From the NCBI RefSeq assembly GCF_947581915.1, contig NZ_CANPWG010000038.1, positions 89,429 to 153,428 on the forward strand: 64,000 bases of DNA, in the 5' to 3' direction. A model generated the notes under the pieces. It was not told where the DNA came from, ran no database searches, and saw only the letters and a program-made list of their open reading frames with translations. Both the position numbers and the translations under genes were made by a program. Positions 11,958 through 64,000 of the stretch are shown here, in pieces. Position 1 is the stretch's first letter; every line of letters starts with the position of its first letter. This stretch comes from Candidatus Palauibacter scopulicola. GTDB taxonomy: Bacteria > Gemmatimonadota > Gemmatimonadetes > Palauibacterales > Palauibacteraceae.

Positions 11958-11980
11958 CGCCGTCGCCCCTCACGAGAGAC

Positions 11981-12367
11981 TCAGACGACGTCGTCGAGGA
12001 GGAAGAGGTCGGTGAGGAGTGCCCTCAGGTGGGACGAGGCGTTGAGGTTGTCGATCAACTGCGAACTGATCGTCTCCTGGGTGAGGACGATCCGGACCGC
12101 CGCCCCGGCCCGCGCGGCATCGGCCGAAGTCACGTCGATCATCTCGCCGTAGGCGCCCGCCGGTTCCAGCCCCTCCGCCGCCACCAGGCCGCCGAGGTCG
12201 TCCGCCAGCGCCCGGAGCGCGGCATCCGCCCGGCTCAGGTACTCCCGCAACTGGCCGCCGACCTTCGAGGCTTCCTCACGCTCGGCGCCGAGCGCGGCGT
12301 AGGAGAGGAAGAACTCGTACGCCTTTTCGAGCACCTCGATGTGAGCCTTCAGCTCCTCGCGGCTCAA
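11981..12367 (-). CDS. Hypothetical protein, last gene of the molybdoenzyme operon
   Basis: 128-aa ORF overlapping the cytochrome b gene by 4 nt (operon coupling). No recognisable domain. Confidence 0.4.
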   Translation of the reverse strand: MSREELKAHIEVLEKAYEFFLSYAALGAEREEASKVGGQLREYLSRADAALRALADDLGGLVAAEGLEPAGAYGEMIDVTSADAARAGAAVRIVLTQETISSQLIDNLNASSHLRALLTDLFLLDDVV

Positions 12368-14238: not shown

Positions 14239-14251
14239 CGTCCTATCTCCC

Positions 14252-37738: not shown

Positions 37739-38386
37739 ATGAAATTCATGCAGTTGCTGGAAATCGTCGCGGATGAGCCCGTGTTCGAGACCGGATTCCT
37801 TCGCAGCGGGCGCGCCCGGGAGCCGGGTCTGGAGGCGCAGCTCAGCCGTTGGTGCGCCGCCGGCAAGCTGCTGCGGCTCCGGCGCGGCTTGTTCGCGCTG
37901 GCGCCGCCGTACCGGAAGGTGATTCCGCATCCCTTCCTCCTCGCCAACCGGCTCTCGCCCGGCTCGTACGTGAGCGGGCTGTCGGCGCTCGCCTTCGCGA
38001 ACGCGATCCCGGAGTACGTCCCGGAGGTCACCAGTTGCGGGCCCGCGCGTCCCCACGTGCGGGAGACGCCGCTGGGGCGGTTCTCCTTCCGCTACGTGAA
38101 GCCGGAGTTGCGGACCGGCTATCGGCTCGTGAGCCTGGTCGACGGACAGAGCGCGTTCGTCGCCCGCCCCGAGAAGGCCTTCCTCGACCTCGCGCACCTG
38201 CAGCCGGGCGGAGATGCTCCGGCCTGGATCGACGCACTGCGGCTGGACTTCGAGGCACTCTCGTCCACGCGCCTGCGAGCGGCTGCGGCCGCCACGGGGA
38301 GTCCGAAGCTGGTCCGCGCCGCGGCGCACGTCATTCGCCGCGCGAGCAATCCGGCGTCCGCTTACGAACCCCTGCCCGTCACGTGA
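37739..38386 (+). CDS. AbiEi-family antitoxin / transcriptional regulator (type IV TA)
   Basis: AbiEi_4-like N-terminal winged helix and C-terminal domain. Precedes and overlaps AbiEii (GTGA). Confidence 0.65.
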   Translation: MKFMQLLEIVADEPVFETGFLRSGRAREPGLEAQLSRWCAAGKLLRLRRGLFALAPPYRKVIPHPFLLANRLSPGSYVSGLSALAFANAIPEYVPEVTSCGPARPHVRETPLGRFSFRYVKPELRTGYRLVSLVDGQSAFVARPEKAFLDLAHLQPGGDAPAWIDALRLDFEALSSTRLRAAAAATGSPKLVRAAAHVIRRASNPASAYEPLPVT

Positions 38387-39186
38387 AGGACCATCTCCGG
38401 GAACTGATCCGGGATCTCGATCCGCATGCCGCACGCAACGCGATGCGGGAGTACCTTCAGGCCCGAATCCTGGAGGGCCTGCAGCGGGCGGGCGCCATGT
38501 CGCCGCTGGCGTTCCAGGGTGGGACGGCGCTGCGTTTCCTGTACCGGTTGCCGAGGTACTCCGAGGATCTCGACTTCGCCCTCGAGGGGCCGCGCGAGAG
38601 CTACGATCTGCGAAGCTGGCTGGCGGCCATCGACGCGCAGTTCCGGCGGGAGGGCTACGACGCGGTCGCTTCGCTACGCGATGCCGGCACTGTCCACGCC
38701 GCGTGGCTCCGTTTCGAGGGACTCCCCCACGAGTTCGGTCTGTCGAGCCACCGCGACGAAACGCTCCGGATCAAGCTCGAGGTCGACACCCGCCCGCCCG
38801 CGGGCGCCGTGACCGAGACGCGCCTCGTGCGGCGGCACGTGTCACTGCGGATCCATCACCACGACCGGGCCTCGCTGCTGGCCGGCAAACTCCACGCCGT
38901 ACTCCACCGGCCCTGGCTGAAGGGGAGGGACATCTACGATCTGGTCTGGTACCTGAGCGACCCCGCGTGGCCGCCCCCGAATCTGGATCTCCTCAACGCG
39001 GCCCGCCGCCAGACGGACCCCGCCGCGTCGGCGCTCACGGAGGACACGTGGCGCCAGGCCGTCGCGGCGAGAGTCGCGGACGTGGAACGGAAAGCGGTCG
39101 AAGCCGACATCCGCCCGTTTCTGGAGAGCGGCGACGACGTGCCCGCACGGGCCGACGCGCTGGACCTGCTACGCCTCCGCCGCTGA
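38383..39186 (+). CDS. AbiEii/AbiGii-family nucleotidyltransferase toxin (DUF1814)
   Basis: Nucleotidyltransferase motif (GGTALRFLYRLPRYSEDLDFAL) and conserved C-terminal region. GTG start overlaps the AbiEi stop. Confidence 0.7.
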   Translation: MKDHLRELIRDLDPHAARNAMREYLQARILEGLQRAGAMSPLAFQGGTALRFLYRLPRYSEDLDFALEGPRESYDLRSWLAAIDAQFRREGYDAVASLRDAGTVHAAWLRFEGLPHEFGLSSHRDETLRIKLEVDTRPPAGAVTETRLVRRHVSLRIHHHDRASLLAGKLHAVLHRPWLKGRDIYDLVWYLSDPAWPPPNLDLLNAARRQTDPAASALTEDTWRQAVAARVADVERKAVEADIRPFLESGDDVPARADALDLLRLRR

Positions 39187-44738: not shown

Positions 44739-47414
44739 ATGGAACGAGACAGCCGAGAGACGTTCGGCTCACGCTTCGGGCTCGTGGCCACGATGATCGG
44801 CGTCGCCGTCGGTCTCGGGAACGTGTGGCGCTTCCCGTACATGGTCGGCGAGTTCGGCGGGGCTCCCTTCGTGGCCTTCTACGTCCTCGCCGTGGTGCTG
44901 ATCGGCGTTCCCGCGCTCATGGCGGAATGGACGCTGGGCCGGCACACCCGCCGCGGCCCGGTCGGCGCGTTCGAGTCGGCCGGTCTCCCCTTCGGCCGCG
45001 CCCTCGGCTGGATCTTCTTCGTCGGCGTCACCGCGGCCACCGGCTACTACTCGAACGCGCTCGGCTGGGTACTGTACCACGCCCTGGCCGGGCTGCTCTC
45101 CGGCGTCGGGATCGAGATCGCCGCCGCCGCGATCCTGCCCCCGGACGAGGGGTTTTCGCTGCGCTCCTTCCTCCTGCAGTGCGTCTGCACCGGCGCGGTG
45201 CTCCTCACCTGCGCCGCGGTGCTGCGGCGCGGCCTCCGGGGCGGGATCGAGAAGGCGAGCCGCTTCATCGTGCCGGCGCTCCTCGGCGGCCTCCTCATCC
45301 TCATCATCCGCTCGCTCACGCTGCCCGGCGCGGGCGAGGGCCTCCGCTGGTACCTCGGCGCCTTCGATCCCGGCGCGCTCACGCCGCCCGTCATGCTGGG
45401 GGCGCTGGGCCAGGCGATCTTCAGCCTCTCGCTGGGCGGCACGTTCATGGTCGTGTACGGCTCCTACCTGAACCGCGGCGACCCTCTGCGCGGCAACGCC
45501 GTCTTCACCGCGGGCGGCGACCTGTGCGCCGGACTCCTGGCGGGGCTCGCCATCTTCCCCGCCGTGTTCGCCTTCGGGCTCGAACCGGCGAGCGGTCCCG
45601 GTCTCCTCTTCGTCACGCTGCCCGACGTGTTCGGGCAGATCCCGGCCGGGGCCGTGTTCGGGACGCTCTTCTTCCTGGCGCTGTTCGGGGGCGCCTACCT
45701 GTCGGACGTGGCGGCGCTGGAGGTGCTGGTGGCCGGGGTCACCGACAACACCGGGATCGGGCGCTCGCGCGCCGTCACGCTGACGACCGTGGTCGTGTTC
45801 GCGTTTGCGCTGCCCCCGATGATCAACATGAACGTGTTCACGCCCTGGGATCTGACCTTCGGATCGGGTTTCCAGACGCTCGGCGCGCTGCTCTCGGTTG
45901 TCGCCGTGGGGTGGGCGCTGGACCGCTCCGAAGTGCTGCGGCAACTGGCGGCGGGCGAGGATGGGCCCCGCGGGCGGCGGGTGCCCACGCTCTGGCTCTA
46001 CTACTGGCTCCGCTTCGTCATCCCCGCCGCGATCCTCGCCGTCGGAGCCTGGTGGCTGCTGCGGGACGTGCTGGGCAATGCGGGCGCCGGCCCGCCGCCC
46101 GCTGCCCGGGCCACTCTGGCCATCGAGGAGGTCTCGGTCCTTCCGATGGATGGCGAGCGCGTGCTCGCCGGCGTGACGGTGCTCATCGGCGACGGCCGCG
46201 TGCTCGCCGTGAGTCCGTCGGCCGAAGCGGAGGTCCCGGACGGCGCCGAGCGGGTCGACGGCCGCGGCCGCTTCCTCATCCCGGGCCTCCACGACATGCA
46301 CGTCCACTTCGGGGAGGAGTCGGCGCTCGGGCGGTTCCTGGCCACCGGAGTCACCGGCGTGCGCATCCTGTCGGGCGGGCCGCACACGCTCGACTTTCGC
46401 GACCGCGTCCGGAGCGGCGCACTGGCCGGCCCGGACATCCACACGGCGGGGCCGATCATCGAGGGGTTGCCGCCGCCGGGGTTCGCCGCCGTCATCGACA
46501 CGGCGGGACGCGCGATCGTCCACGACAGCCTCGACGGCGCCCGCACTGTGCGGGAGCAGCATGCCGCCGGGTACGACTTCATCAAGGTGTACAACAACGT
46601 GCCCGCGGCGGCCTACCGGGGCGTCGTCGCCGAGGCGCGCGGGCTCGGGATCCCGGTGGCGGGACACGTGCCCTTCGAGGTGGGACTCGATGGCGTCCTC
46701 GCGGCGGGCCAGGCCAGCATCGAACACCTGCGCGGGTACATCTGGCACCTCGTGCCCGAGGAGGCGCCGGCCCAGCCCGGCCCTGATTTGCGGTCGCGCA
46801 CGCTCGCCTGGGCTCACGGAGATCCCGCGCGGATCGGAGCGCTCGCCGAGCGGACCCGCCGGGCCGGCTCGTGGAACGTGCCCACGCTCTCGGTCCGCAT
46901 GATTCACAAGCCGGACCGCCTCCTCGATGCGTACCTCGCCACGGAGGAGGCGTCGCACATGACCGCCGCCATGCGCCGCTTCTACACCGAGCGCATGTCG
47001 ATCCCCTGGATGAGCAACTTCTCGCCGGATGACTTCGAGGCCGCGCTGGATGGTTTCGCGGTGGCGGATTCCCTCATCCGCGCCCTCGTGGCCGCCGGCG
47101 CTCCCGTGATGGCCGGCACGGATACGCCGCCCCTCGGCTTCGCCCTCCATCGCGAACTGGAGGAACTCGTCGCGGCGGGTCTGTCACCGTACGAGGCGCT
47201 GCGGAGCGCCACGGTCAACCCGGCCCGCTTCCTCGGACGGGAGGGGGGCGCCGGCATGGTGGTCGACGGGAGCCCCGCCGACCTCGTGCTGCTGGAGGGC
47301 AATCCGCTGGAAGCGATCGGCAACACGCGCCGCATCGCCGGCGTCGCGAGGCGCGGCGAATGGCTCGACCGCGCGACACTGGACGCGATGCTGCGGGAGG
47401 CCGCAGGCCGCTGA
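44739..47414 (+). CDS. Fusion protein: N-terminal Na+-dependent NSS-family transporter plus C-terminal amidohydrolase domain
   Basis: NSS signature GLGNVWRFPY with about 12 TM helices. Extra hydrophobic segment (WLRFVIPAAILAVGAWWLL). C-terminal metal-dependent hydrolase domain (LIPGLHDMHVHF...AGTD). Confidence 0.75.
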   Translation: MERDSRETFGSRFGLVATMIGVAVGLGNVWRFPYMVGEFGGAPFVAFYVLAVVLIGVPALMAEWTLGRHTRRGPVGAFESAGLPFGRALGWIFFVGVTAATGYYSNALGWVLYHALAGLLSGVGIEIAAAAILPPDEGFSLRSFLLQCVCTGAVLLTCAAVLRRGLRGGIEKASRFIVPALLGGLLILIIRSLTLPGAGEGLRWYLGAFDPGALTPPVMLGALGQAIFSLSLGGTFMVVYGSYLNRGDPLRGNAVFTAGGDLCAGLLAGLAIFPAVFAFGLEPASGPGLLFVTLPDVFGQIPAGAVFGTLFFLALFGGAYLSDVAALEVLVAGVTDNTGIGRSRAVTLTTVVVFAFALPPMINMNVFTPWDLTFGSGFQTLGALLSVVAVGWALDRSEVLRQLAAGEDGPRGRRVPTLWLYYWLRFVIPAAILAVGAWWLLRDVLGNAGAGPPPAARATLAIEEVSVLPMDGERVLAGVTVLIGDGRVLAVSPSAEAEVPDGAERVDGRGRFLIPGLHDMHVHFGEESALGRFLATGVTGVRILSGGPHTLDFRDRVRSGALAGPDIHTAGPIIEGLPPPGFAAVIDTAGRAIVHDSLDGARTVREQHAAGYDFIKVYNNVPAAAYRGVVAEARGLGIPVAGHVPFEVGLDGVLAAGQASIEHLRGYIWHLVPEEAPAQPGPDLRSRTLAWAHGDPARIGALAERTRRAGSWNVPTLSVRMIHKPDRLLDAYLATEEASHMTAAMRRFYTERMSIPWMSNFSPDDFEAALDGFAVADSLIRALVAAGAPVMAGTDTPPLGFALHRELEELVAAGLSPYEALRSATVNPARFLGREGGAGMVVDGSPADLVLLEGNPLEAIGNTRRIAGVARRGEWLDRATLDAMLREAAGR

Positions 47415-48548: not shown

Positions 48549-48796
48549 GGCGCCTCCGAAGTACGTCCGTAAACGAGTTTCTCCGCGGAAGACCTGGCCG
48601 CTGACCGGCTTCGGTTGCGGCGGCACGATAGTCTGACGGCCAAATGTCGGGCGGCGTCACTCGTCACGCGGGCCCGCACTTGCAACGCGGCGCGGAGGTT
48701 GGTGAGGTTGGCCGTGAGATCCGGGTGCGCCGCCGGTCGAGGCGCCGGCCGCGTCGAGAGCCCATTTGGACCGCATCGGGCCATCGCAACGAGGAT

Positions 48797-50044
48797 TTGA
48801 ACATCCGCTACCGCACGCTTCCGGCGCTCTGCGCCCTTCTCCTTCTCCCGCAAGCTGCCGTCGGTCAGGAAGCTGTGCGCCGGGTCTCGCTCGCGCGGGC
48901 CCTGGAGGCGTTCGCGGAGAACAGCCTCGCGCTCAGGATCGCGCGCTCCGAGGCCGCCGAAGTCGCCGGAATCGCGCGCCAATCTCGTGTCTGGTTCAAC
49001 CCGTCGCTTTCGGTCAGGCGCGACGACCTCGACCGCAACGGCGACGAGTACTGGGAGGAGAATCTGCTCCTCTCTCAACCCCTGGAGTGGCCGGGTCGAA
49101 CCGCGGCCCGTCACCGGGCGGCCACCCACACGATCGAAGCGAGCGCCGCCCGTTTCCGCGGCGACTCGATGCGGCTCGCCTTCGACGTTCGCGAGGCCTG
49201 GGCGCTCGCGTGGTTCGCGGAAGCGGCGGAACGCACGGCGCGGCAGGCCGCGGCGGTGATCCGGGAGGTGGCGGAGGACGCGGAAATCCGCCTGGAGGAG
49301 GGGGACATCTCCGCCTACGAAACGAGGCGGTTACGACTGGCACGAGTGCGGGCCGAACAGGATGTGGCGGAGGCCGAACTCCGCGCCCGTGACGCGCGCC
49401 GGCGCCTCGCGGCGCTGACCTTTCCCGGCACGGGAATCGAGGAGGTCGGACCGTCCACGGGGCTTGAAGGGTTGCCGCCCCTGGTGACTCGAGATGACGC
49501 GCTGGGCGCGTTGCTCGAGCGGCCGGACCTGGAGGCCGCGGGCCGAGATCTGGACGCCGCGCAAGCCGAACTCGCCGTCGCGAGGTCCCGTTGGATGCCC
49601 GACCCGACCGTCAGCCTGGGATATCGCCGGCAGGAGGGCGGATTCGAGGGACTCAGCCTCGGTCTCGACCTTCCGTTACCGCTGTTCGACCGGGGAGCGG
49701 GAACCCGGCAGGCATCCGACGCCCGCAGCGCCGCGGCCGCCCATCGTCTCGACCTCCGGAGACGGCTGGCGGAGAACGATCTCCTGACGACCTCGGACCG
49801 CTACGCCTCCAGCCGCGCCCGTCTCGAAACAGCGGCCGATGGCTTGTCGGCGGATGCCGAGGCGCTGCTCGCCTCCGCGATGGCGGCCTACGGTGAGGAC
49901 GAAATGTCGCTCCTGGAGTTGCTCGACGCGGCGAACGCCTTCCGGGGCGCCCGGCTCAGCGCCCTCTCCATGCGATCCGCGGCGTGGATCGACTACTGGG
50001 ACCTCCTGCGCGCCATGGGAAGGGCCCCGGAACGCGAGCCGTGA
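48797..50044 (+). CDS. TolC-family outer-membrane efflux protein
   Basis: TTG start after GAGGA. Signal peptide (LPALCALLLLPQAAVGQEA). Two OEP repeats. Confidence 0.7.
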   Translation: MNIRYRTLPALCALLLLPQAAVGQEAVRRVSLARALEAFAENSLALRIARSEAAEVAGIARQSRVWFNPSLSVRRDDLDRNGDEYWEENLLLSQPLEWPGRTAARHRAATHTIEASAARFRGDSMRLAFDVREAWALAWFAEAAERTARQAAAVIREVAEDAEIRLEEGDISAYETRRLRLARVRAEQDVAEAELRARDARRRLAALTFPGTGIEEVGPSTGLEGLPPLVTRDDALGALLERPDLEAAGRDLDAAQAELAVARSRWMPDPTVSLGYRRQEGGFEGLSLGLDLPLPLFDRGAGTRQASDARSAAAAHRLDLRRRLAENDLLTTSDRYASSRARLETAADGLSADAEALLASAMAAYGEDEMSLLELLDAANAFRGARLSALSMRSAAWIDYWDLLRAMGRAPEREP

Positions 50045-52997: not shown

Positions 52998-54206
52998 CTA
53001 GCGAAGGTGTGGCTCGAGCTGTCCGGTGGGGCCGTATCTGCCGATCGCTCCGAAGTCGAGACCAACGACAGATTCACCTGCGACCGAATCCTGCTCGAAG
53101 ACGATGAAGCCAAGTTCCGCAAGGCGCGTGAGTTCTCGAACGAAAGTCCTGGGAGTAACGACGCGATACACCGTGCGGACGAAGGGTGAATCCACCAGCT
53201 CGCGGAGCAACACTCGTCTGGAGGGGTCTTCCGAGAACGGGTCGATCGGCTCGGTTTCCTCAAGGAGAAAAACCAGAAGACCATGCTCCCGCTCGTTGAT
53301 GAGACGGCGACGTTTGCTGATTCGTTCTCCGAGCGCCCAAGTCAGCGTCGAACGATAGACCAAGCGATTCAGCTTCGACTTAATGAAGGAGTTGATCCCC
53401 TTCAACTCGGCGTCAAACCCCTGAAGCCCGAACTCCACGAAGGGATCCACGCTGACCGGTTGCTCCCTGCGGCATTCCTGCAGGCGCCTCTTGTAGAGGT
53501 CCCCGTTGCGGTAGAAGTAGTTCGAGAGCCCGTAGAAACCATGGACGTTGTATCCTCCTTCGAAGAGGATGGCTGCCTCGACCAGTCTCGACACACGTCC
53601 GTTGCCGTCTCCGAACGGATGGATGGTCGCCAGGAAGAAATGGGCAAGCAGCGCTCTGACCACCGGATGTTCATCCCGCACGCGCCGAGGATTAACGAAA
53701 GCCACGAAGCCGTCGAGCAGATTCGAGAGGTTCTCGTGAGGCGCCCCCAGGTGAACTCCCCCCAGTGCCGGCGTACCGACCTGCACGCCGTGTGCTCGCA
53801 AGCGGCCGGGAACGTTGTTGACCTCGTCGGACCCCCGCGTCATCAGCCTATGCATGTGGAGGATATCCGCAACGCTTAGCGGCGGCTTACCGGGCCCGAA
53901 TCTCTCGCGAACCCAGTCTTGGGCGGCGTTCGCATTCTCGACCTGAAGGGCTTCCTTTGTTGTCGAATCGGCACGCGTATCGCGTTCCAGCAGTTCACGC
54001 ACCTGAGCCTCCGACAGCGGGTTTCCCTCGAGGGCAGTCGTACCGCGAATGGTTCTGATGCGGTTCAGTCGGTCGAGTTGGTCCTTCCAGTCCGGCGGCA
54101 GCAGAAGATTCTCTACCGCCTTCTTGCTTGCCTCGATTTCTACCAGGAGGCTCTGCAGGTGCCGTCCGTCAAGGTGATATTCGAAGCTGAACTCTCGCCA
54201 ATCCAT
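52998..54206 (-). CDS. Fic-family protein (AMPylase) with N-terminal inhibitory motif
   Basis: Fic motif HPFGDGNGRVSR. TTALEGN matches the (S/T)xxxE(G/N) inhibitory helix. Confidence 0.8.
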   Translation of the reverse strand: MDWREFSFEYHLDGRHLQSLLVEIEASKKAVENLLLPPDWKDQLDRLNRIRTIRGTTALEGNPLSEAQVRELLERDTRADSTTKEALQVENANAAQDWVRERFGPGKPPLSVADILHMHRLMTRGSDEVNNVPGRLRAHGVQVGTPALGGVHLGAPHENLSNLLDGFVAFVNPRRVRDEHPVVRALLAHFFLATIHPFGDGNGRVSRLVEAAILFEGGYNVHGFYGLSNYFYRNGDLYKRRLQECRREQPVSVDPFVEFGLQGFDAELKGINSFIKSKLNRLVYRSTLTWALGERISKRRRLINEREHGLLVFLLEETEPIDPFSEDPSRRVLLRELVDSPFVRTVYRVVTPRTFVRELTRLAELGFIVFEQDSVAGESVVGLDFGAIGRYGPTGQLEPHLR

Positions 54207-54422: not shown

Positions 54423-55706
54423 TTGAGAGTGGAGGACGTTCGGGCCAGCCACGCGTGCGGGCGGGATAGTTCGGGCGCTCGGCTGCGCCGGACGGTTTCC
54501 GGAAGGCCCGGTTTCAGGGCGTTCGTGGTGCTGGTTGCCGCCTGGGCGGCGGCGTGCGGGGACGGGAGCACGGACCTTCCTCTGACGCACGCGCCGAGGG
54601 CCATCGGCGTGCTTCCCGACCTGGAACTTCCCCGGGGTGAGTCCGCGCTGGTGGAGGTGTCGGGCCTCTTCAGCGACGCGGACGGGGATGTGCTTTCCTA
54701 CGAGGTCCGGTCTTCGGCCCCCGGGGTGGTCGCGGCGGAGGTGTCGGGCGGCACGGTGCGGCTGGTCGCCCTGGCGCACGGGATGGCCACGGTGGCGATC
54801 ACGGCACGCGATCCCCAGGGCCGGGCCGCCGCCCTCCGCTTCGAGGTCACCGTACCGAACAGGTTCGACATCGAGGTCCGCTTCGACAGTACGGCTACCG
54901 AGCCGCGGCGGGCGGTAGTCCTCGCGGCGGCGGAACTCTGGATGTCGGTGCTGGCGGATACGGAGCTGCCGGAGGTGCCGGTCGATGACCGCATCGAATG
55001 TTACGGCGCGCACACGGCGGAACCGGTGGGGAGCGTCGATGACCTGATGATCCTCGTCGAGTTTCGGGACATCGACGGTCCGGGCCGCACGCTCGCCCAG
55101 GCCGGCGTGTGCCGCCTGCGCGAAGGGTCGATGCTGCCGTTCGCGAGCGTGGCGTTCTTCGACGTGTCGGACTTCGGCGGCCTCATCGACTCCGGCGACG
55201 CGACCGAACTCGCCGTTCACGAGATCGCGCACGCGCTCGGATTCGGCCTGCTGTGGCGCCCGCTCGGTCTACTCCGGGATCCTGCCCTCGGCGTGGGGGC
55301 GATCGACGCGCACTTCGTCGGTCCCGAGGCCGTCGCCGCCTTCGACGCGGCGGGCGGCACGGAGTACACCGGCGGGGCGAAGGTCCCGGTCGAGAACCTC
55401 GGCGGAGCCGGGAGCGCGAACCTCCATTGGCGGGGCGCCGTGCTGCGCGGGGAACTCATGAGGCCGCTCAACAGGATCGGAGTCCGGGAGACCCTGAGCG
55501 CGATCACGATCCGGTCGCTGGCCGATCTGGGTTACGTGGTCGACGCGAGCCTGGCGGAGCCGTACCTGCTCCCCGGCGTCGGCGCCGCGGACGAGGAACC
55601 CGGCCGCGTGGTCGATCTGGGCGACGATGTTCTCAGGGGTCCGGTGCAGGTCGTCGATGCGCAAGGACGCGTCGTGCGCGTGCTCCGCGACCGTTCGCCG
55701 GGGTAG
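54423..55706 (+). CDS. Leishmanolysin-like (M8) zinc metalloprotease lipoprotein with N-terminal Ig-like domain
   Basis: HEIAHALGFG (HExxH). Lipobox (LVAAWAAACG). TTG at 54423 or GTG at 54429; start uncertain. Confidence 0.6.
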   Translation: MRVEDVRASHACGRDSSGARLRRTVSGRPGFRAFVVLVAAWAAACGDGSTDLPLTHAPRAIGVLPDLELPRGESALVEVSGLFSDADGDVLSYEVRSSAPGVVAAEVSGGTVRLVALAHGMATVAITARDPQGRAAALRFEVTVPNRFDIEVRFDSTATEPRRAVVLAAAELWMSVLADTELPEVPVDDRIECYGAHTAEPVGSVDDLMILVEFRDIDGPGRTLAQAGVCRLREGSMLPFASVAFFDVSDFGGLIDSGDATELAVHEIAHALGFGLLWRPLGLLRDPALGVGAIDAHFVGPEAVAAFDAAGGTEYTGGAKVPVENLGGAGSANLHWRGAVLRGELMRPLNRIGVRETLSAITIRSLADLGYVVDASLAEPYLLPGVGAADEEPGRVVDLGDDVLRGPVQVVDAQGRVVRVLRDRSPG

Positions 55707-55783
55707 TCCATCCCGTTGACCGAATAAACCGTACATTCCTATGCTCAGGCCGGCGTCCCTCGACCTCCATGGGGTAAGGCACA

Positions 55784-57004
55784 ATGCTGCGCAGACTGCT
55801 GTTCGGATCCAGCCTCAGGATCATCGCCGTGATCACGGTCGGTACGATTGCGGTCGTGGCACTCATGCTCTCGCTGGCCCCCGAACCGGGAAGCCAGGAA
55901 CCGCCCCCCCAGATCCCGTTTGCGCAAACGGCCAACGTTGTGGCCGGATCGGGTGCCATACCCGTGTTCGGATCCGGCACCGTGCGGCCAAGCGAGGAGA
56001 TCGACGTCGCACCGCAGGTGGGCGGCAAGGTCGTCCGGGTGAGTCCGCGATTCCAGAGTGGAGGGCGCGTGGAGGCGGGCGAGACGCTCTTCCGCATCGA
56101 AGAAGCCGATTACGCCTACCGCGTGCAGGTAGCGGAAGCGAACGTCGCGGCCAGCCGCGTCGCCTTCCTCGAGGAACAGGAACGGGCAACGATCGCCAGC
56201 GCCCAGTATGAACTGTACGTGGAGCGGCGCGAGACGGGGCCTCCGCCGGCCGAGGCGAGTCCGCTCACGCTGAGGGAGCCTCAGCTGGAAGCGGCCAGCG
56301 CCGCGCTGAGCCGGGATCAGGCCCGGCTTGAGGAGGCGAAACTCGCGTTCTCCAGGACCCGGGTCACCGCGCCGTTCGATGGCTTCGTGCGCGAGGAATC
56401 CGTCGATGCGGGGCAGGTCGTGAACCCCGGGCAGCCCGTCGGACGCCTCTTCGCTTCGGGGGCGGTGGAGGTCGTCGTTCCCCTCTCCGACGCCGACGCC
56501 GCCCTGGTCCCCGGATTGTGGGGGCTTGAGGCGGGGGACGGGGCACGGGACGTAGCGGCTCGTGTGGTCGCCCACTACGGGGATGCCACGTACGCCTGGG
56601 AGGGCTACGTGGATCGGGGTGAGACTTCCGTTGACGCGCAGACACGCACCATCGACGTGATCGTGCGCGTGCCGGACCCGTTCGACCCAAGCGCGCCGGC
56701 GGGCCCGTCCGCCGCCGTCGGGGGCGATCCTCCGTTGCTGGTCGGCAAGTTCGTGGAGGTGGAGATCGAGGGAATCTCACCGGAGGACTACTTCCGGATC
56801 CCGCGAGCTGCGCTGCAACCCGGCAACGAAGTCTGGACGGTGGACGGCGACGGCGTCGTGAGCATCGTTCCGGTTCAGGTGCTGCAACGCGCCAACGATG
56901 CGGTGTTCGTCACCGGCGCCCTGCGGGGCGGCCAGGCGGTAGTCACCGGTGGACTTCAGTTCGCCACCGAAGGGATGCGCGTCCAGACCGACCCGGCGCG
57001 ATGA
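55784..57004 (+). CDS. Efflux RND transporter periplasmic adaptor subunit (HlyD/MFP family)
   Basis: N-terminal TM, coiled-coil, and beta-barrel/MP domains. Confidence 0.8.
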   Translation: MLRRLLFGSSLRIIAVITVGTIAVVALMLSLAPEPGSQEPPPQIPFAQTANVVAGSGAIPVFGSGTVRPSEEIDVAPQVGGKVVRVSPRFQSGGRVEAGETLFRIEEADYAYRVQVAEANVAASRVAFLEEQERATIASAQYELYVERRETGPPPAEASPLTLREPQLEAASAALSRDQARLEEAKLAFSRTRVTAPFDGFVREESVDAGQVVNPGQPVGRLFASGAVEVVVPLSDADAALVPGLWGLEAGDGARDVAARVVAHYGDATYAWEGYVDRGETSVDAQTRTIDVIVRVPDPFDPSAPAGPSAAVGGDPPLLVGKFVEVEIEGISPEDYFRIPRAALQPGNEVWTVDGDGVVSIVPVQVLQRANDAVFVTGALRGGQAVVTGGLQFATEGMRVQTDPAR

Positions 57005-60000
57005 ATCCCGACGCGGGTCCCGAGCCGGACGACCGCCGCGAGCGGTCCGGCCCGCTCGCCTACATGGCCAGCAACGGCATCGCGGCCAATCTCCTGATGA
57101 TGGGCATCGTCGCGGCCGGACTCGTGGCCCTGACCGGCCTCGAGCGGGAAGCCTGGCCCATCACCCCCTTCTACCACATCGAAGTCTCGATGGCCTATCC
57201 CGGCGCCACGCCGGAGGAGATCGAGGAGTCGATCGTCGTCAAGATCGAGGACCAGGTCAGCGGGCTCGATGACGTGAGGGCCGTCAAGTCCCTGGCGGCT
57301 CCGGGCATTGCCTCCGTGCGGATCCAGATGGATTCCCGTACGGACATGGATCGGGCCCTGGACGACATCGAATCTGCCGTCAATCGCATCCAGTCCTTCC
57401 CGGCCGGAGCCGAACGTCCGCGCTTCCAGGAGATGGACAACCGCTTCAGCATGATGCGGCTCATCGTCCACGGCGACGTCTCCGAGCGCTCGCTGAAGGA
57501 ACTGGCGCATCGGATCGAGGATGACCTCGCCGCGCTACCCTCCGTCTCCCAGGTCGAGGTCAGCGGGGTCCGGAACTACGAGATCTCCATCGAGGTATCG
57601 CTTCACCGCCTCAGAGCCCTGGGACTCTCCCTCACCGACGTTGCCGGGGCGATCCGCCGCAGTTCGCTCGACTTGTCGGCCGGCAGCATCGACACGCGGG
57701 AATCCCAGGTTCGGGTGCGGACCCTCGGGCAGAACTACGACCAGCAGGACTTCGAGGAGATCGTCCTTCTCAGCGGCCGCGACGGCACGGTCGTGCGCCT
57801 CGGCGACATTGCCGAGGTCCGCGACGGGTTCCAGGAGGCAGACCTGATCGTCCGCCATCAGGACCGGCCCGCCGTATTCGTCGAGGTCTATCGGGCCGGT
57901 GGCGAGCAGGTGATGGATGTGGCCACGACGGTTCGCGAGCACCTGGCGAACGAGGTGATCCCGGCCTTGCCGGACGGCGTGGGCATCACCCTGTGGAACG
58001 ACGAATCCCAGGCCTACGAGGAACGCGCCGATCTTCTTCTGAAGAACGGATTTCTGGGTTTGTTGCTGGTGCTGGTCGCACTGAGCCTGTTTTCTCCAGG
58101 TTCGGCTCGCCCTGTGGGTCGCCGTGGGCCTCGCCGTTTCGGGTGTAGGCGCGCTCGCCGCCATGATGGCATTCGACGTGGCGATCAACACCATCAGCCT
58201 CTTCTCCTTTGTCCTCGCCATTGGGATCGTCGTTGACGACGCCATCGTTGTGGCCGAGCACATTCAACACGAACGCAATCAGGGGACCCCGGGGGTCGCG
58301 GCCGCGATCCGGGGCGTCCGGCGGATCAAGGTGCCGTTGACGTTCGCGGTTCTCACTTCGGTGGTGGCCTTCGTCCCCTTGCTGTTCATCCCCGGCGGCG
58401 TCGGTGACGTATGGCGGGCTCTGCCGATCATCATGATCGCCATGCTGCTGTTTTCGCTGGTGGAATCGCTGTTCGTTCTGCCGAACCACCTGTCCCACCT
58501 GCCCGGTCCGGACTGGGTGCCGGCCAACGCGTTCGACCGATTCTTCTCGCGACTCCAGAGTCGTGTCGACGCCCAACTGCAGCGGTTCATCCAGGGGCCC
58601 CTGGACCGGGCCCTGCGGTTCGCCACGGCCCGGCCCGGGGTGACGATGACGGGGGCCGTTGCACTGCTCGTGCTGAGCATTTCCCTGCTGCCCGCGGGAA
58701 TCGTCCCCACCACGCTGGCCGACGACGTGGAGGGCGATATCGTGACGGTCGTGTTGGAGATGCCCGATGGGGCCACCGCTCCGCGAACGTACGAAGTCGC
58801 GCTGGAGCTGGAGGCCGCGGGCCACCGGGTCATCGAACAACTCTCTCGAAGCCGCCCCGCGGACGCGCCGCCGCTGCTGACCGGTGTCACCGTGACCGTC
58901 GGACTGGGATCGAGAATCGAGGGCGGACTCAACCCGCAGCCCACCCTCAATCCGCAGGCCAATATCGCCACCATCGAGTTCAAACTCCTCGGTGCGCAGC
59001 AGAGGCGGATCTCCACCGGAGACGTCGTGCAGGCGTGGCGGGAGGAGGTGGGTGTGCTGCCCTACGTCCGCGGCATCACCTTCAGCGGCGAGATCTTCAC
59101 CCTGGGGAACCCGGTCGAGGTCGTACTGTCACACCCGGACCCGGAGCGCCTCGCCGGGATCGCCGGCTCGGTGGTCGACGGACTCCGCAGCGTGAGGGGC
59201 GTCTACGACATACGGTCGGATCACGCCCCGGGCATCCCGGAGGTTCAGCTCGAGTTGCGGCCCGAAGCGCGCACGCTCGGTCTCACCGTGCAGGAGTTGG
59301 CGGGACAGGCGAGGGCCGCGTTCTTCGGCGCGGAAGCCGTCCGGGTGCAGCGCGGCCGGGAAGAGGTACGAGTCTACGTCCGGCTGCCCGCCGAAGAGCG
59401 AAACTCGATTACCGATATCGAGGGCTACCTGCTCCGGACGCCGGGCGGGGACGAGGTGCCGATGGTCAGTGTGGCGTCGCTGATCCCGGGCGTATCGCCC
59501 TCGGCCCTCCGGCGCAGGGATGGCCAGCGCGTCGTCACCGTCACCGCCGATGTGGACGCCTCGGTGATTTCCGGCGACGAAGCCAACGAGATCCTGGCCG
59601 GTTCGATCCTCGCGGACCTGGCCGCGGCGTACCCGGGCCTGACATACACGTTCGGGGGCGAGCAGCAGCAGCAGCTGGAGTCCATCGACGCGCTGTACCG
59701 CGGTTTCGCGGTCGCGCTGATCCTGATTTTCGCGCTCCTCGCCATCCCCCTCCGTTCATACACCAAGCCGTTCATCATCATGGCCGTCATCCCCTTCGGG
59801 TTCATCGGCGTGATCCTGGGCCACTGGATCCTGGGAGTAGCCCTGAGCGCCGTCTCCTTCATGGGGATCTTCGGTCTGAGCGGCGTGGTGGTGAACGATT
59901 CCCTGGTCATGATCGATTTCATCGATCAGAAACTCCGGGAAGGCGTCCCGCCGAGAACCGCGATCATGGAGGGGGCAAAGGGGCGTTTTCGTCCGATCAT

Positions 60001-60208
60001 GCTCACTTCCCTGACCACGTTCCTCGGCTTCACGCCCCTGATCCTCGAGCGCGCGATCCAGGCCCAGTTCCTGATACCGTTTGCCGCTTCGCTCGGTTGC
60101 GGCATTCTCTTCATAACGGCCATACTTATGATGGTGGTTCCGGCGCTATGCACTCTACATCTGCGCTTGATGCCGTCGCGGCGTCCTTCGATTCCGAGCG
60201 CCGCATAG
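57001..60208 (+). CDS. RND efflux permease (AcrB/CzcA family), interrupted by a +1 frameshift at 58090-58093
   Basis: Two adjacent ORFs (57001-58236 and 58124-60208) together align with one RND permease. The frame changes within a T4 run (LVALSLF | LQVRLALWVAV). Confidence 0.75.
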
Positions 60209-60242: not shown

Positions 60243-62270
60243 ATGACGGTGCAGAGTCTGAAGGTCGAATCCCTGAGCCTCGTCGACGAACTCATCCTGA
60301 TGCTTCTCGACGAGAAGGGAGGCTACTTCCATCAGGTCCCCGGCTGGCAGCTGAACTGCGCCGTGGTCGGCGGGGTGCTGGCGGAACTCTCCTTCCGGTC
60401 GCGGCTCGACTCGGACCTGACATCCCTGTACGTGGTGGACCGGGCCGAGACGGGCGATCCCGTCCTGGATCCCATCCTGAAGGAGATTGCGGACGAACCG
60501 GTCCAACACACGGCCCGGTACTGGGTCGAACGGCTCGCCCCCCGCGCCGAATCGGTTGTCGACCTGACCCTGGATCGCCTGGTTGAACGGGGGATCCTCC
60601 AACACCACGAGGGCGAATTCTGGACGCTGGCTCCCCCCGTCATGCATCGGCAGCAGTACGGGATGTTCGAGGAAGACGCGACTGACCAGTTCATCAAGGC
60701 GCGCATCGGCAACGTCATCTTCGCCGACGAGGTTCCCGAACCGAGAGACGCCGTCATCGTGTGCCTCGTCAACACCTGCGATGTGTTTCGCCTGATCTTC
60801 GAACTCGATGAAGCGGCGGAGGAGCGCATCAAGTGGATCTGTCAGTTGGACCTGATCGGCCGGTCCATCGCCGCTGTGGTCTCCGAGAACCTCGTCGGTC
60901 CGATCCGGAGACATACTGCTCTCGCCAAGAAGATTCCGACGGTTCCGCTGACCAGGCTGATGCGCAACCCGCATGTTCGCGACGGCAACCTGAACGCGCT
61001 CTTCGGCAGTCTCGCGGAGGAGTACGGCCCGGTGTTCCAGATCCGCCCGCCCTTCTCGAAGCGCATGATCTTCCTGGCCGGACTCGAGACGAATGAATGG
61101 ATGCAAAAGCGCGGGCGCATGTACCTGAGGACCAGGGACTACTTCGCCGACTTCGAGAAGGTCTACGGCGCGGCCGGCGTTCTGCCCGCTCTGGACGGGG
61201 CCGACCACTTCCGGCTTCGCAAGTTCCTGTCGCCGGCCTATTCCCGCACGAGACTTGCAGGGCAGCTGGACGACCTCTACGGCAGGGGGCGCGCGTACAT
61301 GTCGACCCTGACGGTCGGGGACTCCTACCGCGCCACGTCCATGGGCCGGGCCATGGTGAACGCCCAGCTGTCGCCGCTGTTCATCGGCGTCGACACGCAG
61401 GATCTCATGGACGACCTGATGGTCTACAAGGAGCGGGCCCTCAGCGTGCACATCGCCAGGATCCTGCCCAGGTTCACGCTGCATACCCCGGGCATGAGGC
61501 GTCGGGCGGCCGTCCTGGACACGCTGATGAAGCGGATCTTGAGCGTCCATACTCCCGCCCAACGCGTGGACAGCCCGCGGAACCTGGTGGACGACTATCT
61601 CAGCCTGCATGCCAGCGACCCGCAGTTTCTCCCGGAGTCCAACCTGCTCTTCGCTTTTTCCGCGGCTCTGATTGCCAGCGTGTACCTCGGCGACACGTTC
61701 AGCCTCGCAGTCTACGCCATGGTATCGCAGCCGGCGCTCTACGAGAGGATCCGCGCCGAAGCGGATGCGCTGTTTGCCAACGGTGACCCCGAAAAAGAGG
61801 ATTTCACCCCCGCCAACATCGACGTGACGCATCGCTTCCTCATGGAGTGCATGCGCATGTACCCGATCGTGTCCATGTCCGTTCGGAACGTGATGAATAC
61901 CTGCACGGTCGAGAACTACGAGTTGCCCCTGGGGGAACGGGTCCACATCGCCATGACCGCCACGCATTACATGAGCGACATCTTTCCCGAACCCCACAGG
62001 TTCGACATCGACCGCTTCCTGCCGTCGCGTCGTGAGCATCACAGTCTCGGGTTCGCCCCGTACGGGCTGGGTACGCACAAATGTCTCGGCACCCGCTGGA
62101 TGGAGATGCACCTGGCGGCCAACCTGTTGATGCTGGCGCACTATTTCACGATCGAGGTGTCGCCGGCGAAATACGCCCGGAAGCTCCGCTTCAATCCGCT
62201 TCCATCGCTGAAGCCGAGCAAGAAGGTCAGGTTCCGCATCGCCGAGCAGAGGCGGGAGCTGCCCGCCTGA
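60243..62270 (+). CDS. Fusion protein: N-terminal GPP34 (GOLPH3/Vps74-like) domain plus C-terminal cytochrome P450
   Basis: N-terminal LSLVDELILMLLDEKGG is typical of the GPP34 family. C-terminal P450 signatures: ExxR (ECMRMYP), PxRF (PEPHRF), heme loop FAPYGLGTHKCLG. Confidence 0.75.
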   Translation: MTVQSLKVESLSLVDELILMLLDEKGGYFHQVPGWQLNCAVVGGVLAELSFRSRLDSDLTSLYVVDRAETGDPVLDPILKEIADEPVQHTARYWVERLAPRAESVVDLTLDRLVERGILQHHEGEFWTLAPPVMHRQQYGMFEEDATDQFIKARIGNVIFADEVPEPRDAVIVCLVNTCDVFRLIFELDEAAEERIKWICQLDLIGRSIAAVVSENLVGPIRRHTALAKKIPTVPLTRLMRNPHVRDGNLNALFGSLAEEYGPVFQIRPPFSKRMIFLAGLETNEWMQKRGRMYLRTRDYFADFEKVYGAAGVLPALDGADHFRLRKFLSPAYSRTRLAGQLDDLYGRGRAYMSTLTVGDSYRATSMGRAMVNAQLSPLFIGVDTQDLMDDLMVYKERALSVHIARILPRFTLHTPGMRRRAAVLDTLMKRILSVHTPAQRVDSPRNLVDDYLSLHASDPQFLPESNLLFAFSAALIASVYLGDTFSLAVYAMVSQPALYERIRAEADALFANGDPEKEDFTPANIDVTHRFLMECMRMYPIVSMSVRNVMNTCTVENYELPLGERVHIAMTATHYMSDIFPEPHRFDIDRFLPSRREHHSLGFAPYGLGTHKCLGTRWMEMHLAANLLMLAHYFTIEVSPAKYARKLRFNPLPSLKPSKKVRFRIAEQRRELPA

Positions 62271-62281
62271 GCCCCCCCACA

Positions 62282-63313
62282 ATGCGACTCGGCAAACTGT
62301 CGAAAGCGCTGAGAGCTGCGCACGCGGGATCGGGCGTCGCGCGTCGAGTCCGGCACCTCGAAGGCTGGCTTGATCGAGCGGCATCGGAGGCTGCGGGCGC
62401 GGGCACCTACGACCACGCGGAAACGGTCAGGGACTACTACGAGCTGTGCAACGGCTTCATGGTGTACGGCTGGGGCGAATCCCTGCACTTCGCGCCCCTC
62501 ACGCCCAGTGAAAGCCTGGAGGAGTCCAAGCTCCGGCACCAGCGGGCGATGATCTCCATGTTGGAGCTGCAACAGGGCATGGAGGTGATCGACGTCGGGT
62601 GTGGAATCGGCGGCCCCATGCGCCGAGTCGTCCGCGAGGCGGGTGTCAGGGTCGTGGGCATCAACATCAATGAGATCCAGCTGGGGGAGGCGAAGAAGCT
62701 GAACGCCGAGGCGGGGCTGGAGCACATGACCGATTTCAGGAAGCGCAGCTTCGAGGACATGAGCGCCATCGAGGACGACACCTTCGACGCGGGTTACGCG
62801 ATCGAGTCGACGTGCCATGCGCAGGACAAGCAACGCGCGTTCGCGGAGGTATTCCGCGTACTGAAGCCGGGCGCCCTGTTCTGGGGCCAGGAAATGTGCC
62901 TGACGGACCGGTTCGATCCGCGGGACGGCCGGCACCGGACCATCAAGCGGGAGCTCATGCGCGGTATCGCGCTGCACGACATCGCCACGTTCGGAGAAGT
63001 GAATCGCGCTCTCGAAGGGGCGGGATTCCAGGTCATCGAGGGGAGTGACTGGGAGGTCCGGGAAGGACCCGCTACGCCCTGGTATCAACCCATGGAGAGT
63101 CGGCACGGGACGTTGGGGAACGCGGTGCGCAGGCTCCCCTGGGGCCGCAAGGCGTTCATCGCGGGGTCGAAGTTGGCCGAGGTGCTGCGGTTCTTTCCGA
63201 AGGGCTCGGCGGAGGTGGTTCGACTCCTTGACCGAACCGCGGAGGCTTACGTCGCAGGCGGCAAGACGGGCATCTTCACGCCCCTGTATTGTTTCCTGGC
63301 GCGCAAGCCCTAG
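62282..63313 (+). CDS. SAM-dependent methyltransferase of the sterol 24-C-methyltransferase (ERG6/SMT) family
   Basis: SMT region I YYELCNGFMVYGWGESLHFA. SAM motif I VIDVGCGIGGP. Sterol_MT_C-like C-terminal region. Confidence 0.7.
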   Translation: MRLGKLSKALRAAHAGSGVARRVRHLEGWLDRAASEAAGAGTYDHAETVRDYYELCNGFMVYGWGESLHFAPLTPSESLEESKLRHQRAMISMLELQQGMEVIDVGCGIGGPMRRVVREAGVRVVGININEIQLGEAKKLNAEAGLEHMTDFRKRSFEDMSAIEDDTFDAGYAIESTCHAQDKQRAFAEVFRVLKPGALFWGQEMCLTDRFDPRDGRHRTIKRELMRGIALHDIATFGEVNRALEGAGFQVIEGSDWEVREGPATPWYQPMESRHGTLGNAVRRLPWGRKAFIAGSKLAEVLRFFPKGSAEVVRLLDRTAEAYVAGGKTGIFTPLYCFLARKP

Positions 63314-63999
63314 TCGGCGCTGCGGTCAGGGCTTCGAGGCGCCATCGCCGGGTCCGGATAGAACTGTCGGCAGTGTCGGCGGTACTTCCCGATGGGGCCG
63401 TCCGTCCGGCAAAGCCGCGGGGGAGACCGGTAGCGCTTCCTGTCCCAGATCACGATGTCCTGCAGGACGAACCGCCTCTCCTCGCGGAGGATGAAGTAAT
63501 TCAGCACCCGGTGGCGCAGCGGCACGGGCAGGAAGCCCAGGCCCGAGATGAACCGCCCCGGTTTCCGGATCTCCCGCACCTGATTGACCATCGTCAACTC
63601 CACGAATTCGCCGTCGACGGGCGTCGTAAGCACCCACATGCGCGACCTTATGCCGACCGACTTCTCGTGAATCTCGACGAAGGAGTAGCCGAGTCCGTGG
63701 ACGTGCGTGATGACCGAGACTTCGGAATGAATGTCCACCAGACCCAGGATCCGGCGCACCGCCTTGAAGTCGAAACAACTCTTCAGGTAGGCGCCGTCGA
63801 CGGAAAAGTCGGTCGGCTCCACGTCGTGGTAGCCATGTGTGTACTCGAGGTGCTCCACGTCCACGGAGTTTTCCGTCGTCTCCTGGGGATGGCCTCGAAA
63901 CCGCAGCTTGCAGGATCGGAGCCCGGTCCACTGGGCGCCGGTGGGTGGTTCGTCCGGCAGGTGCCACTGGGGGGCTCGGCCGCCGCTCCCCCACCAGGC
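63310..63999 (-). CDS. Rieske-type non-heme iron oxygenase, catalytic domain (partial; N-terminal Rieske domain lies beyond the window edge)
   Basis: Frame open to the window end. Mononuclear-iron motif ENSVDVEHLEYTH (E-N-x2-D-x2-H-x4-H). C-terminal LQDIVIWDRK resembles the oxygenase QDxxI motif. Confidence 0.55.
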   Translation of the reverse strand, partial: AWWGSGGRAPQWHLPDEPPTGAQWTGLRSCKLRFRGHPQETTENSVDVEHLEYTHGYHDVEPTDFSVDGAYLKSCFDFKAVRRILGLVDIHSEVSVITHVHGLGYSFVEIHEKSVGIRSRMWVLTTPVDGEFVELTMVNQVREIRKPGRFISGLGFLPVPLRHRVLNYFILREERRFVLQDIVIWDRKRYRSPPRLCRTDGPIGKYRRHCRQFYPDPAMAPRSPDRSAD

Positions 64000-64000
64000 G

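Follow-up and report, generated by a model that had tools for sequence, protein, structure and literature searches.

A conserved gene module of sponge and coral symbionts that combines an RND pump, a GPP34–cytochrome P450 fusion, a divergent sterol-methyltransferase homologue and a KshA-type Rieske oxygenase

Three strands of literature on bacterial sponge symbionts concern sterol clusters with their sterol methyltransferases (SMTs), a GPP34–P450 fusion proposed to be an effector, and homologues of KshA. In symbionts of Ircinia, sterol clusters with ERG24, CYP51 and LSS are known from ten phyla, Gemmatimonadetes among them (Kelly et al. 2022, PMC9531527), and SMTs of bacterial symbionts are active in vitro (Brown et al. 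2023, PMC10070321). GPP34_L, which joins a GPP34 and a P450 domain, is exclusive to sponge symbionts of at least 16 phyla, expressed, and absent from free-living relatives (PMC11706023). It was proposed to be a secreted effector that binds phosphatidylinositol 4-phosphate (PI4P) (Ferreira et al. 2025, PMC11706023). KshA clusters exclusive to sponges and spread by horizontal transfer have been counted as steroid catabolism (Holert et al. 2018, PMC5790920). Here, a 64,000-nucleotide stretch of Candidatus Palauibacter scopulicola (Gemmatimonadota; assembly GCF_947581915.1, contig NZ_CANPWG010000038.1, positions 89,429 to 153,428), called the window below, is described. The genus is mostly sponge-associated (PMC10469786). 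The synteny of the five genes at the end of the window suggests that the three strands are parts of one mobile, conserved module, often beside sterol pathway genes. Its probable role is to modify a sterol, or a polycyclic triterpenoid close to one, downstream of or in parallel with the canonical bacterial route to sterols, and to export the product.

Four of the five genes form an operon on the forward strand. The first encodes a 406-residue RND periplasmic adaptor (MFP; 55784–57004, +) with an N-terminal membrane anchor (hydrophobic segment at residues 11–32) and matches to TIGR01730 RND_mfp (157 bits) and Pfam BSH_RND. It overlaps by 4 nt the start of an AcrB-type RND permease gene (57001–60208, +), which a +1 frameshift splits into open reading frames (ORFs) at 57001–58236 and 58124–60208, each with Pfam ACR_tran. 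After 35 nt follows the 675-residue GPP34–P450 fusion (60243–62270, +; Pfam GPP34 104 bits, p450 117 bits), whose GPP34 domain spans about residues 13–213 (60279–60881) and whose P450 domain spans about residues 235–675. The last operon gene encodes a 343-residue C-methyltransferase of a divergent SMT clade, named SMT-B (62282–63313, +; Sterol_MT_C, Methyltransf_11, CMAS). According to the contig gene calls and the sequence, it starts at the ATG at 62282, 12 nt past the P450 stop; the listed ORF begins at 62081 and overlaps the GPP34–P450 gene. The fifth gene, for a KshA-type Rieske non-haem iron oxygenase (63310–64000, −; KshA_C 80.5 bits), is convergent with SMT-B and overlaps it by 4 nt. 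It extends to about 64353, beyond the window, so the window holds residues 118–347 or so of 347, the KshA_C catalytic domain. The same contig continues past position 64000 as a 266-kb metagenome scaffold (ENA ERZ23496730, SAMN13943211); there, in locus L001, the full 347-residue gene lies at 13068–14111 and encodes both a Rieske and a KshA_C domain.

The original prediction had placed three sterol-tailoring genes, for a P450, a methyltransferase and a Rieske oxygenase, at the window edge directly after an RND efflux operon. The three genes are there and have coding-type composition, with GC content of 0.78–0.87 at third and 0.40–0.48 at second codon positions. The Rieske family assignment also stands, with the corrections that the gene is on the minus strand, convergent, and represented in the window by its KshA_C part alone. 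The efflux operon (55784–60208) is part of the conserved module and not a mere neighbour, since it is linked to the module elsewhere, is closely spaced with it in the window, and has the sole promoter-like site 5' of its adaptor gene. This site (55716–55745, +; TTGACC, 18 nt, TATGCT; nine of 12 consensus matches) is weak evidence for a possible operon start. No terminator-like site was found between the forward-strand genes down to SMT-B. The NCBI entries MDE2662833.1 (GPP34–P450) and MDE2662834.1 (SMT-B), from the consecutive series MDE2662833–35 of Candidatus Palauibacter scopulicola, are exact sequences, and the trio is annotated there merely as cytochrome P450, class I SAM-dependent methyltransferase and Rieske domain protein.

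Methyltransferase homologues were scanned for in one genome per GTDB species, with at least 566 matches. Linkage counts here refer to the best 80 of these loci, 72–99% identical to the window SMT-B, and to neighbourhoods of up to 10 kb. SMT-B is found in 79 of the 80 loci, GPP34–P450 in 78 and the KshA-type oxygenase in 68, at most 10 kb apart, and a transporter is nearly always next to the trio. Trio order is shuffled, with at least five different gene orders. The loci come from at least 12 phyla and include Gemmatimonadota, Acidobacteriota, Latescibacterota, Nitrospirales, Nitrospinota, Dehalococcoidia and other Chloroflexota, Rhodothermales, Opitutales, Binatia, Actinomycetes, Gammaproteobacteria and unclassified metagenome-assembled genomes (MAGs). 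Isolate names of many loci belong to sponge or coral MAG series, and almost all are sponge or coral MAGs. SMT-B itself has more than 1,700 close homologues.

Identity across phyla reaches 84–92%. The top values between phyla are 0.91 for SMT-B (Acidobacteriota and Gemmatimonadota) and 0.92 for the RND permease (Gemmatimonadota and Rhodothermales), and the lowest values within phyla, 0.69–0.79, lie below these. The sequence comparisons indicate gene transfer of the module between phyla, as an accessory trait of bacteria that live with sponges and corals. The drop in GC content towards the window end, given below, is a further sign of such transfer. In a Rhodothermales MAG (L023), two DDE transposase ORFs of the same family (7145–9025, −; 11287–13374, +) bracket SMT-B, an arrangement that resembles a composite transposon. 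A reverse-transcriptase ORF lies beside the GPP34–P450 gene in L075.

Six of the 11 Nitrospirales loci, and also the unclassified L075, have canonical sterol genes at most 10 kb from the module. In L050, L064 and L043 (Nitrospirales) and L075, the module abuts a squalene monooxygenase–oxidosqualene cyclase (OSC) fusion, CYP51, ERG24, SdmA, SdmB and a second methyltransferase of canonical sterol clusters, named SMT-A, which has the canonical Region I. The SdmA encoded in these clusters is genuine (415 bits on the NCBIfam equivalog; at L050 2395–3522, 414.7 bits, with VanA_C), and the SdmB scores 303 bits. In the Gemmatimonadota locus L009, the pump has a gene of the ERG4/ERG24 family at a distance of 2 kb. 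Most of the 80 loci have no sterol synthesis gene within 10 kb. The squalene monooxygenase–OSC fusion (about 1130 residues; L043 2181–5621) has 120 listed matches at 72–99% identity. Those at 72–89% occur in many symbiont genomes (Nitrospira, Acidimicrobiia, Rhodospirillales), a conservation across phyla like that of the module.

SMT-B belongs to the SMT family by several features. Sterol_MT_C (PF08498) at residues 282–342 scores 56.9 bits against a cut-off of 21.7; the Cfa and mycolic-acid models reach at most 51 bits. The SAM-binding Region II (DxGxGxxGP) is kept as DVGCGIGGP, H69 and E175 (H90 and E195 in ERG6 numbering) are invariant in two alignments, and the C-terminal GIFTP motif of ERG6, SMT1 and SMT2 is present. 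Of the 25 residues that functional SMTs have in common, a motif alignment finds 23 in SMT-B, which is 38–43% identical to the bacterial SMT-A paralogues. In an exhaustive HMMER search of 1.84 billion representative proteins, the labelled proteins among the 150 best matches are all of the SMT family: a rice cycloartenol SMT1-like protein (44%), fungal ERG6 (33–37%; Cladosporium 33%), an Acidimicrobiia 'sterol 24-C-methyltransferase family' protein and other symbiont SMTs. None of these labelled matches is a mycolic-acid or tocopherol methyltransferase, kin that would have refuted the original prediction. A PDB sequence search returned generic class-I enzymes alone, and we know of no structure of a true SMT.

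Region I sets SMT-B apart. The motif MVYGWGESLHFA at residues 60–71 (62459–62494) had been taken as diagnostic of a sterol C-24 methyltransferase. It is present but less diagnostic than claimed, because the sugar O-methyltransferase RebM (PDB 3bus) also carries WGENLHF. Compared with the functional motif YxxxT..FY(E)YGWGxxFHF, Region I of SMT-B, YELCNGFMVYGWGESLHF, has the changes T78N, Y81M and F89L (ERG6 numbering). In a neighbour-joining tree without support values, SMT-B and six other representative clusters group in a clade of their own, in which residue 81 is Met (once Thr) and residue 89 is Leu; the 93 other clusters have Tyr or Phe at 81 in 85 cases and Phe at 89 in 84. T78 and GWGxxFHF are among the 25 residues conserved in every SMT functional in assays (Brown and Welander, bioRxiv 10.64898/2025.12.19.695621). 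The same work describes the roles of the essential residues H90, D125, G129, P133 and E195.

A published assay bears on this clade through L050, a 70,077-bp Porites lutea MAG contig whose length and gene order fit those of the contig that Brown et al. 2023 (PMC10070321) name 'Nitrospira sp., coral reef'. Mapped onto L050, SMT '1 of 2' (IMG 2682229274) is SMT-A, and '2 of 2' (IMG 2682229270) is an SMT-B orthologue, 76% identical to the window protein and 35.6% to ERG6. The first is active and makes (epi)codisterol (PMC10070321). The second has S78 and L89, and since all functional SMTs keep T78 and F89, it can be equated with a protein that was non-functional in the assays. The SMT-B orthologue thus appears to be inactive on desmosterol and 24-methylenecholesterol. 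The authors note that proteins inactive in their assays may need other substrates (bioRxiv 10.64898/2025.12.19.695621).

The P450 domain of the fusion keeps the ExxR (ECMR) and PxRF (PHRF) motifs and the haem-Cys loop FAPYGLGTHKCLG, all conserved in 76 homologues including paralogues of about 40% identity. Its I-helix reads ASVYLGD and has no acid–alcohol pair, and the usual threonine is absent in the orthologue group of the window protein. The best PDB relative is CYP51 of Methylococcus capsulatus (70.5 bits, E = 1e-18), and identity to the CYP51 of L075 is 29% over 103 residues. ASVYLGD aligns with FAGHHTS of CYP51, and the (A/G)GQHTS signature is absent. Each of the 120 listed fusion homologues has the GPP34 plus P450 architecture. 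A second GPP34–P450 subfamily, about 40% identical, replaces or joins the window type in the module in L029, L038, L040, L041, L042, L045, L051, L056, L067, L071, L075, L081 and L082, with partial copies in L039 and L053. Its members in L042 and L082 have the I-helix AGHYTGS, nearer to the CYP51 signature.

For the N-terminal domain, the top Foldseek match is GOLPH3 (9qpq_B, TM 0.68). The query was the AlphaFold2 model of the fusion (41-sequence alignment), of which only the confident GPP34 part was used; the mean predicted local distance difference test score (pLDDT) is 52, and the P450 domain is below 50. This fold bears on the effector role, by which a secreted GPP34–P450 binds host PI4P and blocks phagosome maturation while its neighbours are unrelated in function. 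Besides the GOLPH3 fold, the restriction of an expressed architecture to sponge symbionts and its absence from free-living relatives (PMC11706023) speak for that role, but we consider it quite unlikely for the window protein. No signal peptide or transmembrane segment was found in the fusion, a P450 needs haem and bacterial redox partners, and the gene lies between the pump and the methyltransferase in an operon, with its linkage kept across phyla. Human GOLPH3 binds PI4P through W81, R90, R171 and R174. In a weak HMMER alignment to GOLPH3 (E = 0.01), R90 is opposite a conserved Val, W81 lies two residues from the invariant W35, and R171 and R174 fall outside the aligned stretch. The GPP34–Rieske fusions reported in two genomes (PMC11706023) also fit an accessory domain of oxygenases better than an effector. 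Long Rieske ORFs (424–616 residues) in the present loci were considered as further such fusions and rejected as start-codon artefacts.

The Rieske protein has KshA as its best PDB match (4qdc, 77.9 bits), followed by SxtT/GxtA-type hydroxylases. The iron motif D164-x2-H167-x4-H172 (63838–63864) is conserved and lies in the window; the Rieske ligands C56-P-H58...C78-P-F-H81 lie beyond it, in L001. On the SdmA equivalog model NF052579 (cut-off 600 bits), the protein scores 34.1 bits and the L050 positive control 414.7. The KshA clusters of Holert et al. 2018 may be of the same family. These clusters and the KshA match would favour steroid catabolism, in which the oxygenase opens ring B (9,10-seco pathway), the P450 attacks the side chain, and the symbiont grows on sponge sterols. 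This seems very unlikely, as the inspected loci hold no KshB, KstD, HsaA–D or beta-oxidation genes, similarity to KshA is low, and a C-methyltransferase dependent on S-adenosylmethionine (SAM) together with an efflux pump fits synthesis and export.

The original prediction implied a canonical trio, in which a CYP51-type C-14 demethylase, a C-24 SMT and an SdmA-type C-4 demethylase act together. Methylococcus CYP51 enzymes are indeed the best PDB relatives of the P450, the methyltransferase has Sterol_MT_C, and the third gene is of the Rieske class. This arrangement is nevertheless extremely improbable. The CYP51 score and identity are low and GQHTS is absent, the Rieske protein scores 34 bits on the SdmA model where the genuine SdmA scores 415, T78, Y81 and F89 are missing from SMT-B, and L050, L064 and L075 encode CYP51 and SdmA as separate genes, as L050 and L064 do for SMT-A. 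The profile and PDB searches do not bear out CYP51 or SdmA, and a place among C-24 methyltransferases is not supported, given the separate clade, its Region I changes and the apparent inactivity of the orthologue on standard substrates. The KshA_C domain of the third gene is of the steroid type. The broader proposal of a sterol or triterpenoid lipid-tailoring cluster holds up, given linkage in 68–79 of the 80 loci, the abutted canonical sterol clusters and the SMT-family relatives.

The window pump is a divergent AcrB/HAE1-type tripartite system (420 bits on a 1250-bit model; HpnN model, 24 bits). AcrB-type RND genes are linked to the module in 45 of the 80 loci, in Gemmatimonadota, Acidobacteriota, Latescibacterota, Opitutales, Rhodothermales and Gammaproteobacteria, alongside an adaptor and sometimes an outer-membrane factor; the adaptor family is linked in 21 loci. 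In Nitrospirales, Dehalococcoidia and Binatia, two MMPL-type pump families (9 and 11 loci) replace it. These match Pfam Sterol-sensing and Patched, and HpnN weakly. Intact RND permease orthologues have about 1064 residues. The frameshift of the window permease, seen as a frame switch by tblastn against the L007 orthologue, results from an extra T in the run at 58090–58093, which reads TTTT against TTT in the related Palauibacter/Gemmatimonadota loci L007, L013 and L022 in a DNA alignment. A second assembly (L002) carries the same extra T. The frameshifted gene may be a pseudogene in the population, may yield two polypeptides, or may reflect reads common to the two assemblies.

Gene content, family membership, linkage, spread between phyla and adjacency to sterol synthesis genes are shown by the data above. 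What the favoured sterol or triterpenoid module acts on, in which order, and what its GPP34 domain and its pump do may be pictured as follows. With SAM as donor, SMT-B would methylate an isolated double bond in a sterol other than desmosterol or 24-methylenecholesterol. The SAM-binding and catalytic residues H90, D125, G129, P133 and E195 are kept; residues 78, 81 and 89, which are thought to bind the sterol side chain, are N, M and L. The P450 and the Rieske oxygenase would add oxygen or a double bond with redox partners encoded elsewhere. The GOLPH3-fold domain could take the place of a membrane anchor and bring the soluble P450 to the membrane or to a lipid substrate. The RND pump, or elsewhere an MMPL-type pump with a sterol-sensing domain, would move the product from the inner membrane to the envelope or the host. 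The substrate could be self-made or host-derived.

Several points weigh against this proposal. Inactivity of the SMT-B orthologue, as deduced above from its residues, would leave the sterol substrate unproven, and the substrates suggested for the two oxygenases are guessed solely from the families they belong to. The AlphaFold2 model of the P450 domain is too poor to use, and a different role has been published for GPP34 (PMC11706023). Neither the 64-kb window nor the 10 kb that follow it yielded an OSC, CYP51, ERG24, SdmA/B or squalene-pathway gene. The suggested continuation of the cluster past 64000 thus holds for the Rieske gene and fails for cyclase, CYP51, ERG24 and SdmAB over that distance. 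With the Nitrospira squalene monooxygenase–OSC fusion as query, none of the 120 listed matches has a Gemmatimonadota name, which does not settle either way whether this genome has a cyclase. No reductase or ferredoxin family recurs across the 80 loci, and the module encodes no redox partner. The pump gene is frameshifted in this strain.

A non-sterol lipid would account for some of these points. SMT-B could methylate squalene, a hopanoid precursor or a fatty-acyl chain, a flavoprotein could reduce the methylene as BfaB/BfaA do for tuberculostearic acid, and the oxygenases and the RND or MMPL pump could finish and export the product. A 462-residue amine-oxidase-type flavoprotein is linked to the module in 36 loci (e.g., L072 6111–7499, +), though not in the window; on the BfaA/BfaB model, the methylene left by the methyltransferase could be its substrate for reduction. 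The apparent inactivity of the SMT-B orthologue on two standard sterols, a fatty-acid desaturase that adjoins the module in L043, and the many loci that lack a nearby sterol synthesis gene all agree with such a lipid. SMT-like enzymes of Botryococcus methylate squalene, mycobacterial MMPL pumps export lipids, and mid-chain methyl-branched fatty acids are a known feature of sponge symbionts. We regard this as possible but unlikely. Sterol_MT_C, the 23 retained SMT residues, the 44% identity to a plant SMT1-like protein and the SMT-family labels of the top matches argue for a sterol, as do the OSC clusters abutted in Nitrospirales and L075, the KshA_C oxygenase, the pumps with a sterol-sensing domain and the ERG3/ERG25- and ERG24-family neighbours. 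The flavoprotein also shows weak similarity to HpnE and protoporphyrinogen oxidase.

Within the sterol proposal, a specific role for SMT-B can be named, though it is speculative and itself rather improbable. SMT-B would be the missing methyltransferase for the unconventional side chains of sponges and act on a position other than C-24, for instance C-26 or C-27 of (epi)codisterol-type Δ25(27) sterols, to give 26-methyl sterols of the aplysterol/strongylosterol type. GPP34–P450 and the Rieske oxygenase would act on the substrate before or after this step, and all of the pathway would be bacterial and spread by gene transfer. The 26-methyl sterols are precursors of the 'sponge' biomarker 26-methylstigmastane, and (epi)codisterol is a proposed substrate of a 26-SMT (PMC10070321; bioRxiv 10.1101/2022.05.16.491679). 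As the neighbouring Nitrospira SMT-A makes (epi)codisterol, its product bears on this role.

Other genes accompany the module in subsets of loci. A 240-residue FA_hydroxylase-family protein lies between SMT-B and GPP34–P450 in five loci (L038, 11142–11864, −; L039, L040, L045, L071); this family belongs to the superfamily of ERG3 and ERG25. Past the Rieske gene in L001 follow a GH116 glycosidase (14215–16821, +), with a signal-like N-terminus, and then a LysW-type amino-acid biosynthesis cluster. The glycosidase is linked to the module only in 13 Gemmatimonadota loci and one Dehalococcoidia locus. GH116 is the family of the glucosylceramidase GBA2, and the enzyme might conceivably have to do with steryl or lipid glycosides.

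On the 5' side, the pump operon adjoins a gene for a leishmanolysin-like Peptidase_M8 protein (54423–55706, +), from a mostly eukaryotic family, which is kept there in seven Gemmatimonadota loci. A Fic-domain gene (52998–54206, −) has a third-position GC content of just 0.70 and is missing from the syntenic L007 region. Overall GC content falls from about 0.71 to 0.63–0.66 from about 52 kb to the window end, over some 12 kb. Searches for island boundaries found no tRNA genes or Rfam matches in the window and no meaningful repeats in the 22-kb locus. Further upstream lie an AbiEii-type toxin gene (37849–39186, +) and an 891-residue ORF (44739–47414, +) that joins a sodium:neurotransmitter symporter domain to an amidohydrolase domain. 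An OEP gene at 48644–50044 was rejected as the outer-membrane factor of the module, as tblastn with the module OEP was negative. With OSC, CYP51, ERG24, SdmA, SdmB and other module-associated proteins as tblastn queries, the window matches are the module genes alone. Other sterol genes elsewhere in the window were rejected from these searches and from Pfam scans of 20 further large ORFs, with ordinary chromosomal content, for example Pol I, PriA and molybdoenzymes.

SMT homologues and GPP34–P450 have each been published before; their linkage with a KshA-type oxygenase, a pump and sterol genes is unreported in the literature examined. The synteny turns the effector hypothesis for GPP34–P450 into a testable enzymatic one. 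It also points to the SMT-B clade, which has an altered Region I and whose orthologues from at least 12 phyla share no less than 72% identity with the window protein, as a leading candidate for the unusual alkylation of sponge sterols. Whether animals or bacteria are the source of these alkylations was still debated in 2025 (PMC12541326). The answer bears on 24-isopropylcholestane and 26-methylstigmastane as the oldest evidence of animals.

Among the known systems, ERG6, SMT1 and SMT2 share Sterol_MT_C, DVGCGIGGP, H90, E195 and GIFTP with SMT-B, at 33–44% identity to fungal and plant members of the family, whereas SMT-B forms a separate clade with M81 and L89. CYP51 enzymes are the best PDB relatives of the P450 and share its generic motifs. 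Unlike them, the window protein reaches 70 bits only and has ASVYLGD for AGQHTS, and a genuine CYP51 is encoded separately beside the module in some genomes. The Rieske protein resembles KshA in its CxH...CxxH and DxxHxxxxH motifs and its KshA_C domain, but scores 78 bits only, has no KshB reductase nearby, and stands in a biosynthetic rather than catabolic context. The cholesterol 7-desaturase Neverland/DAF-36, probably a KshA_C Rieske oxygenase as well, is a candidate relative. SdmA/SdmB of Methylococcus capsulatus likewise include a Rieske-type oxygenase, encoded near SMT genes in symbiont clusters. The window protein differs by its score of 34 bits, by KshA_C in place of VanA_C, and by having no SdmB partner.

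Lipid-exporting RND systems include HpnN for hopanoids and BstA for sterols. As in these, an RND pump is genetically coupled to enzymes of polycyclic lipids here, and the MMPL-type substitutes match the Sterol-sensing and Patched domains; the window pump, unlike HpnN, is of the AcrB/HAE1 type. The sterol clusters of Brown et al. and Kelly et al. (PMC10070321, PMC9531527) share with the module their sponge or coral symbiont hosts and transfer between phyla. Their defining genes are those for OSC, CYP51, ERG24, SdmA/B and an active SMT, none of which is in the window module. The accessible parts of the text and supplements of the two papers do not name GPP34–P450, the KshA-type oxygenase or the pump as neighbours. 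A further known system is GPP34_L (PMC11706023). In architecture, length of about 675 residues and taxa, the window fusion agrees with it and is a member. The main text on GPP34_L is silent on sterols, a methyltransferase and RND, whereas here the gene shares an operon with SMT-B and the pump.

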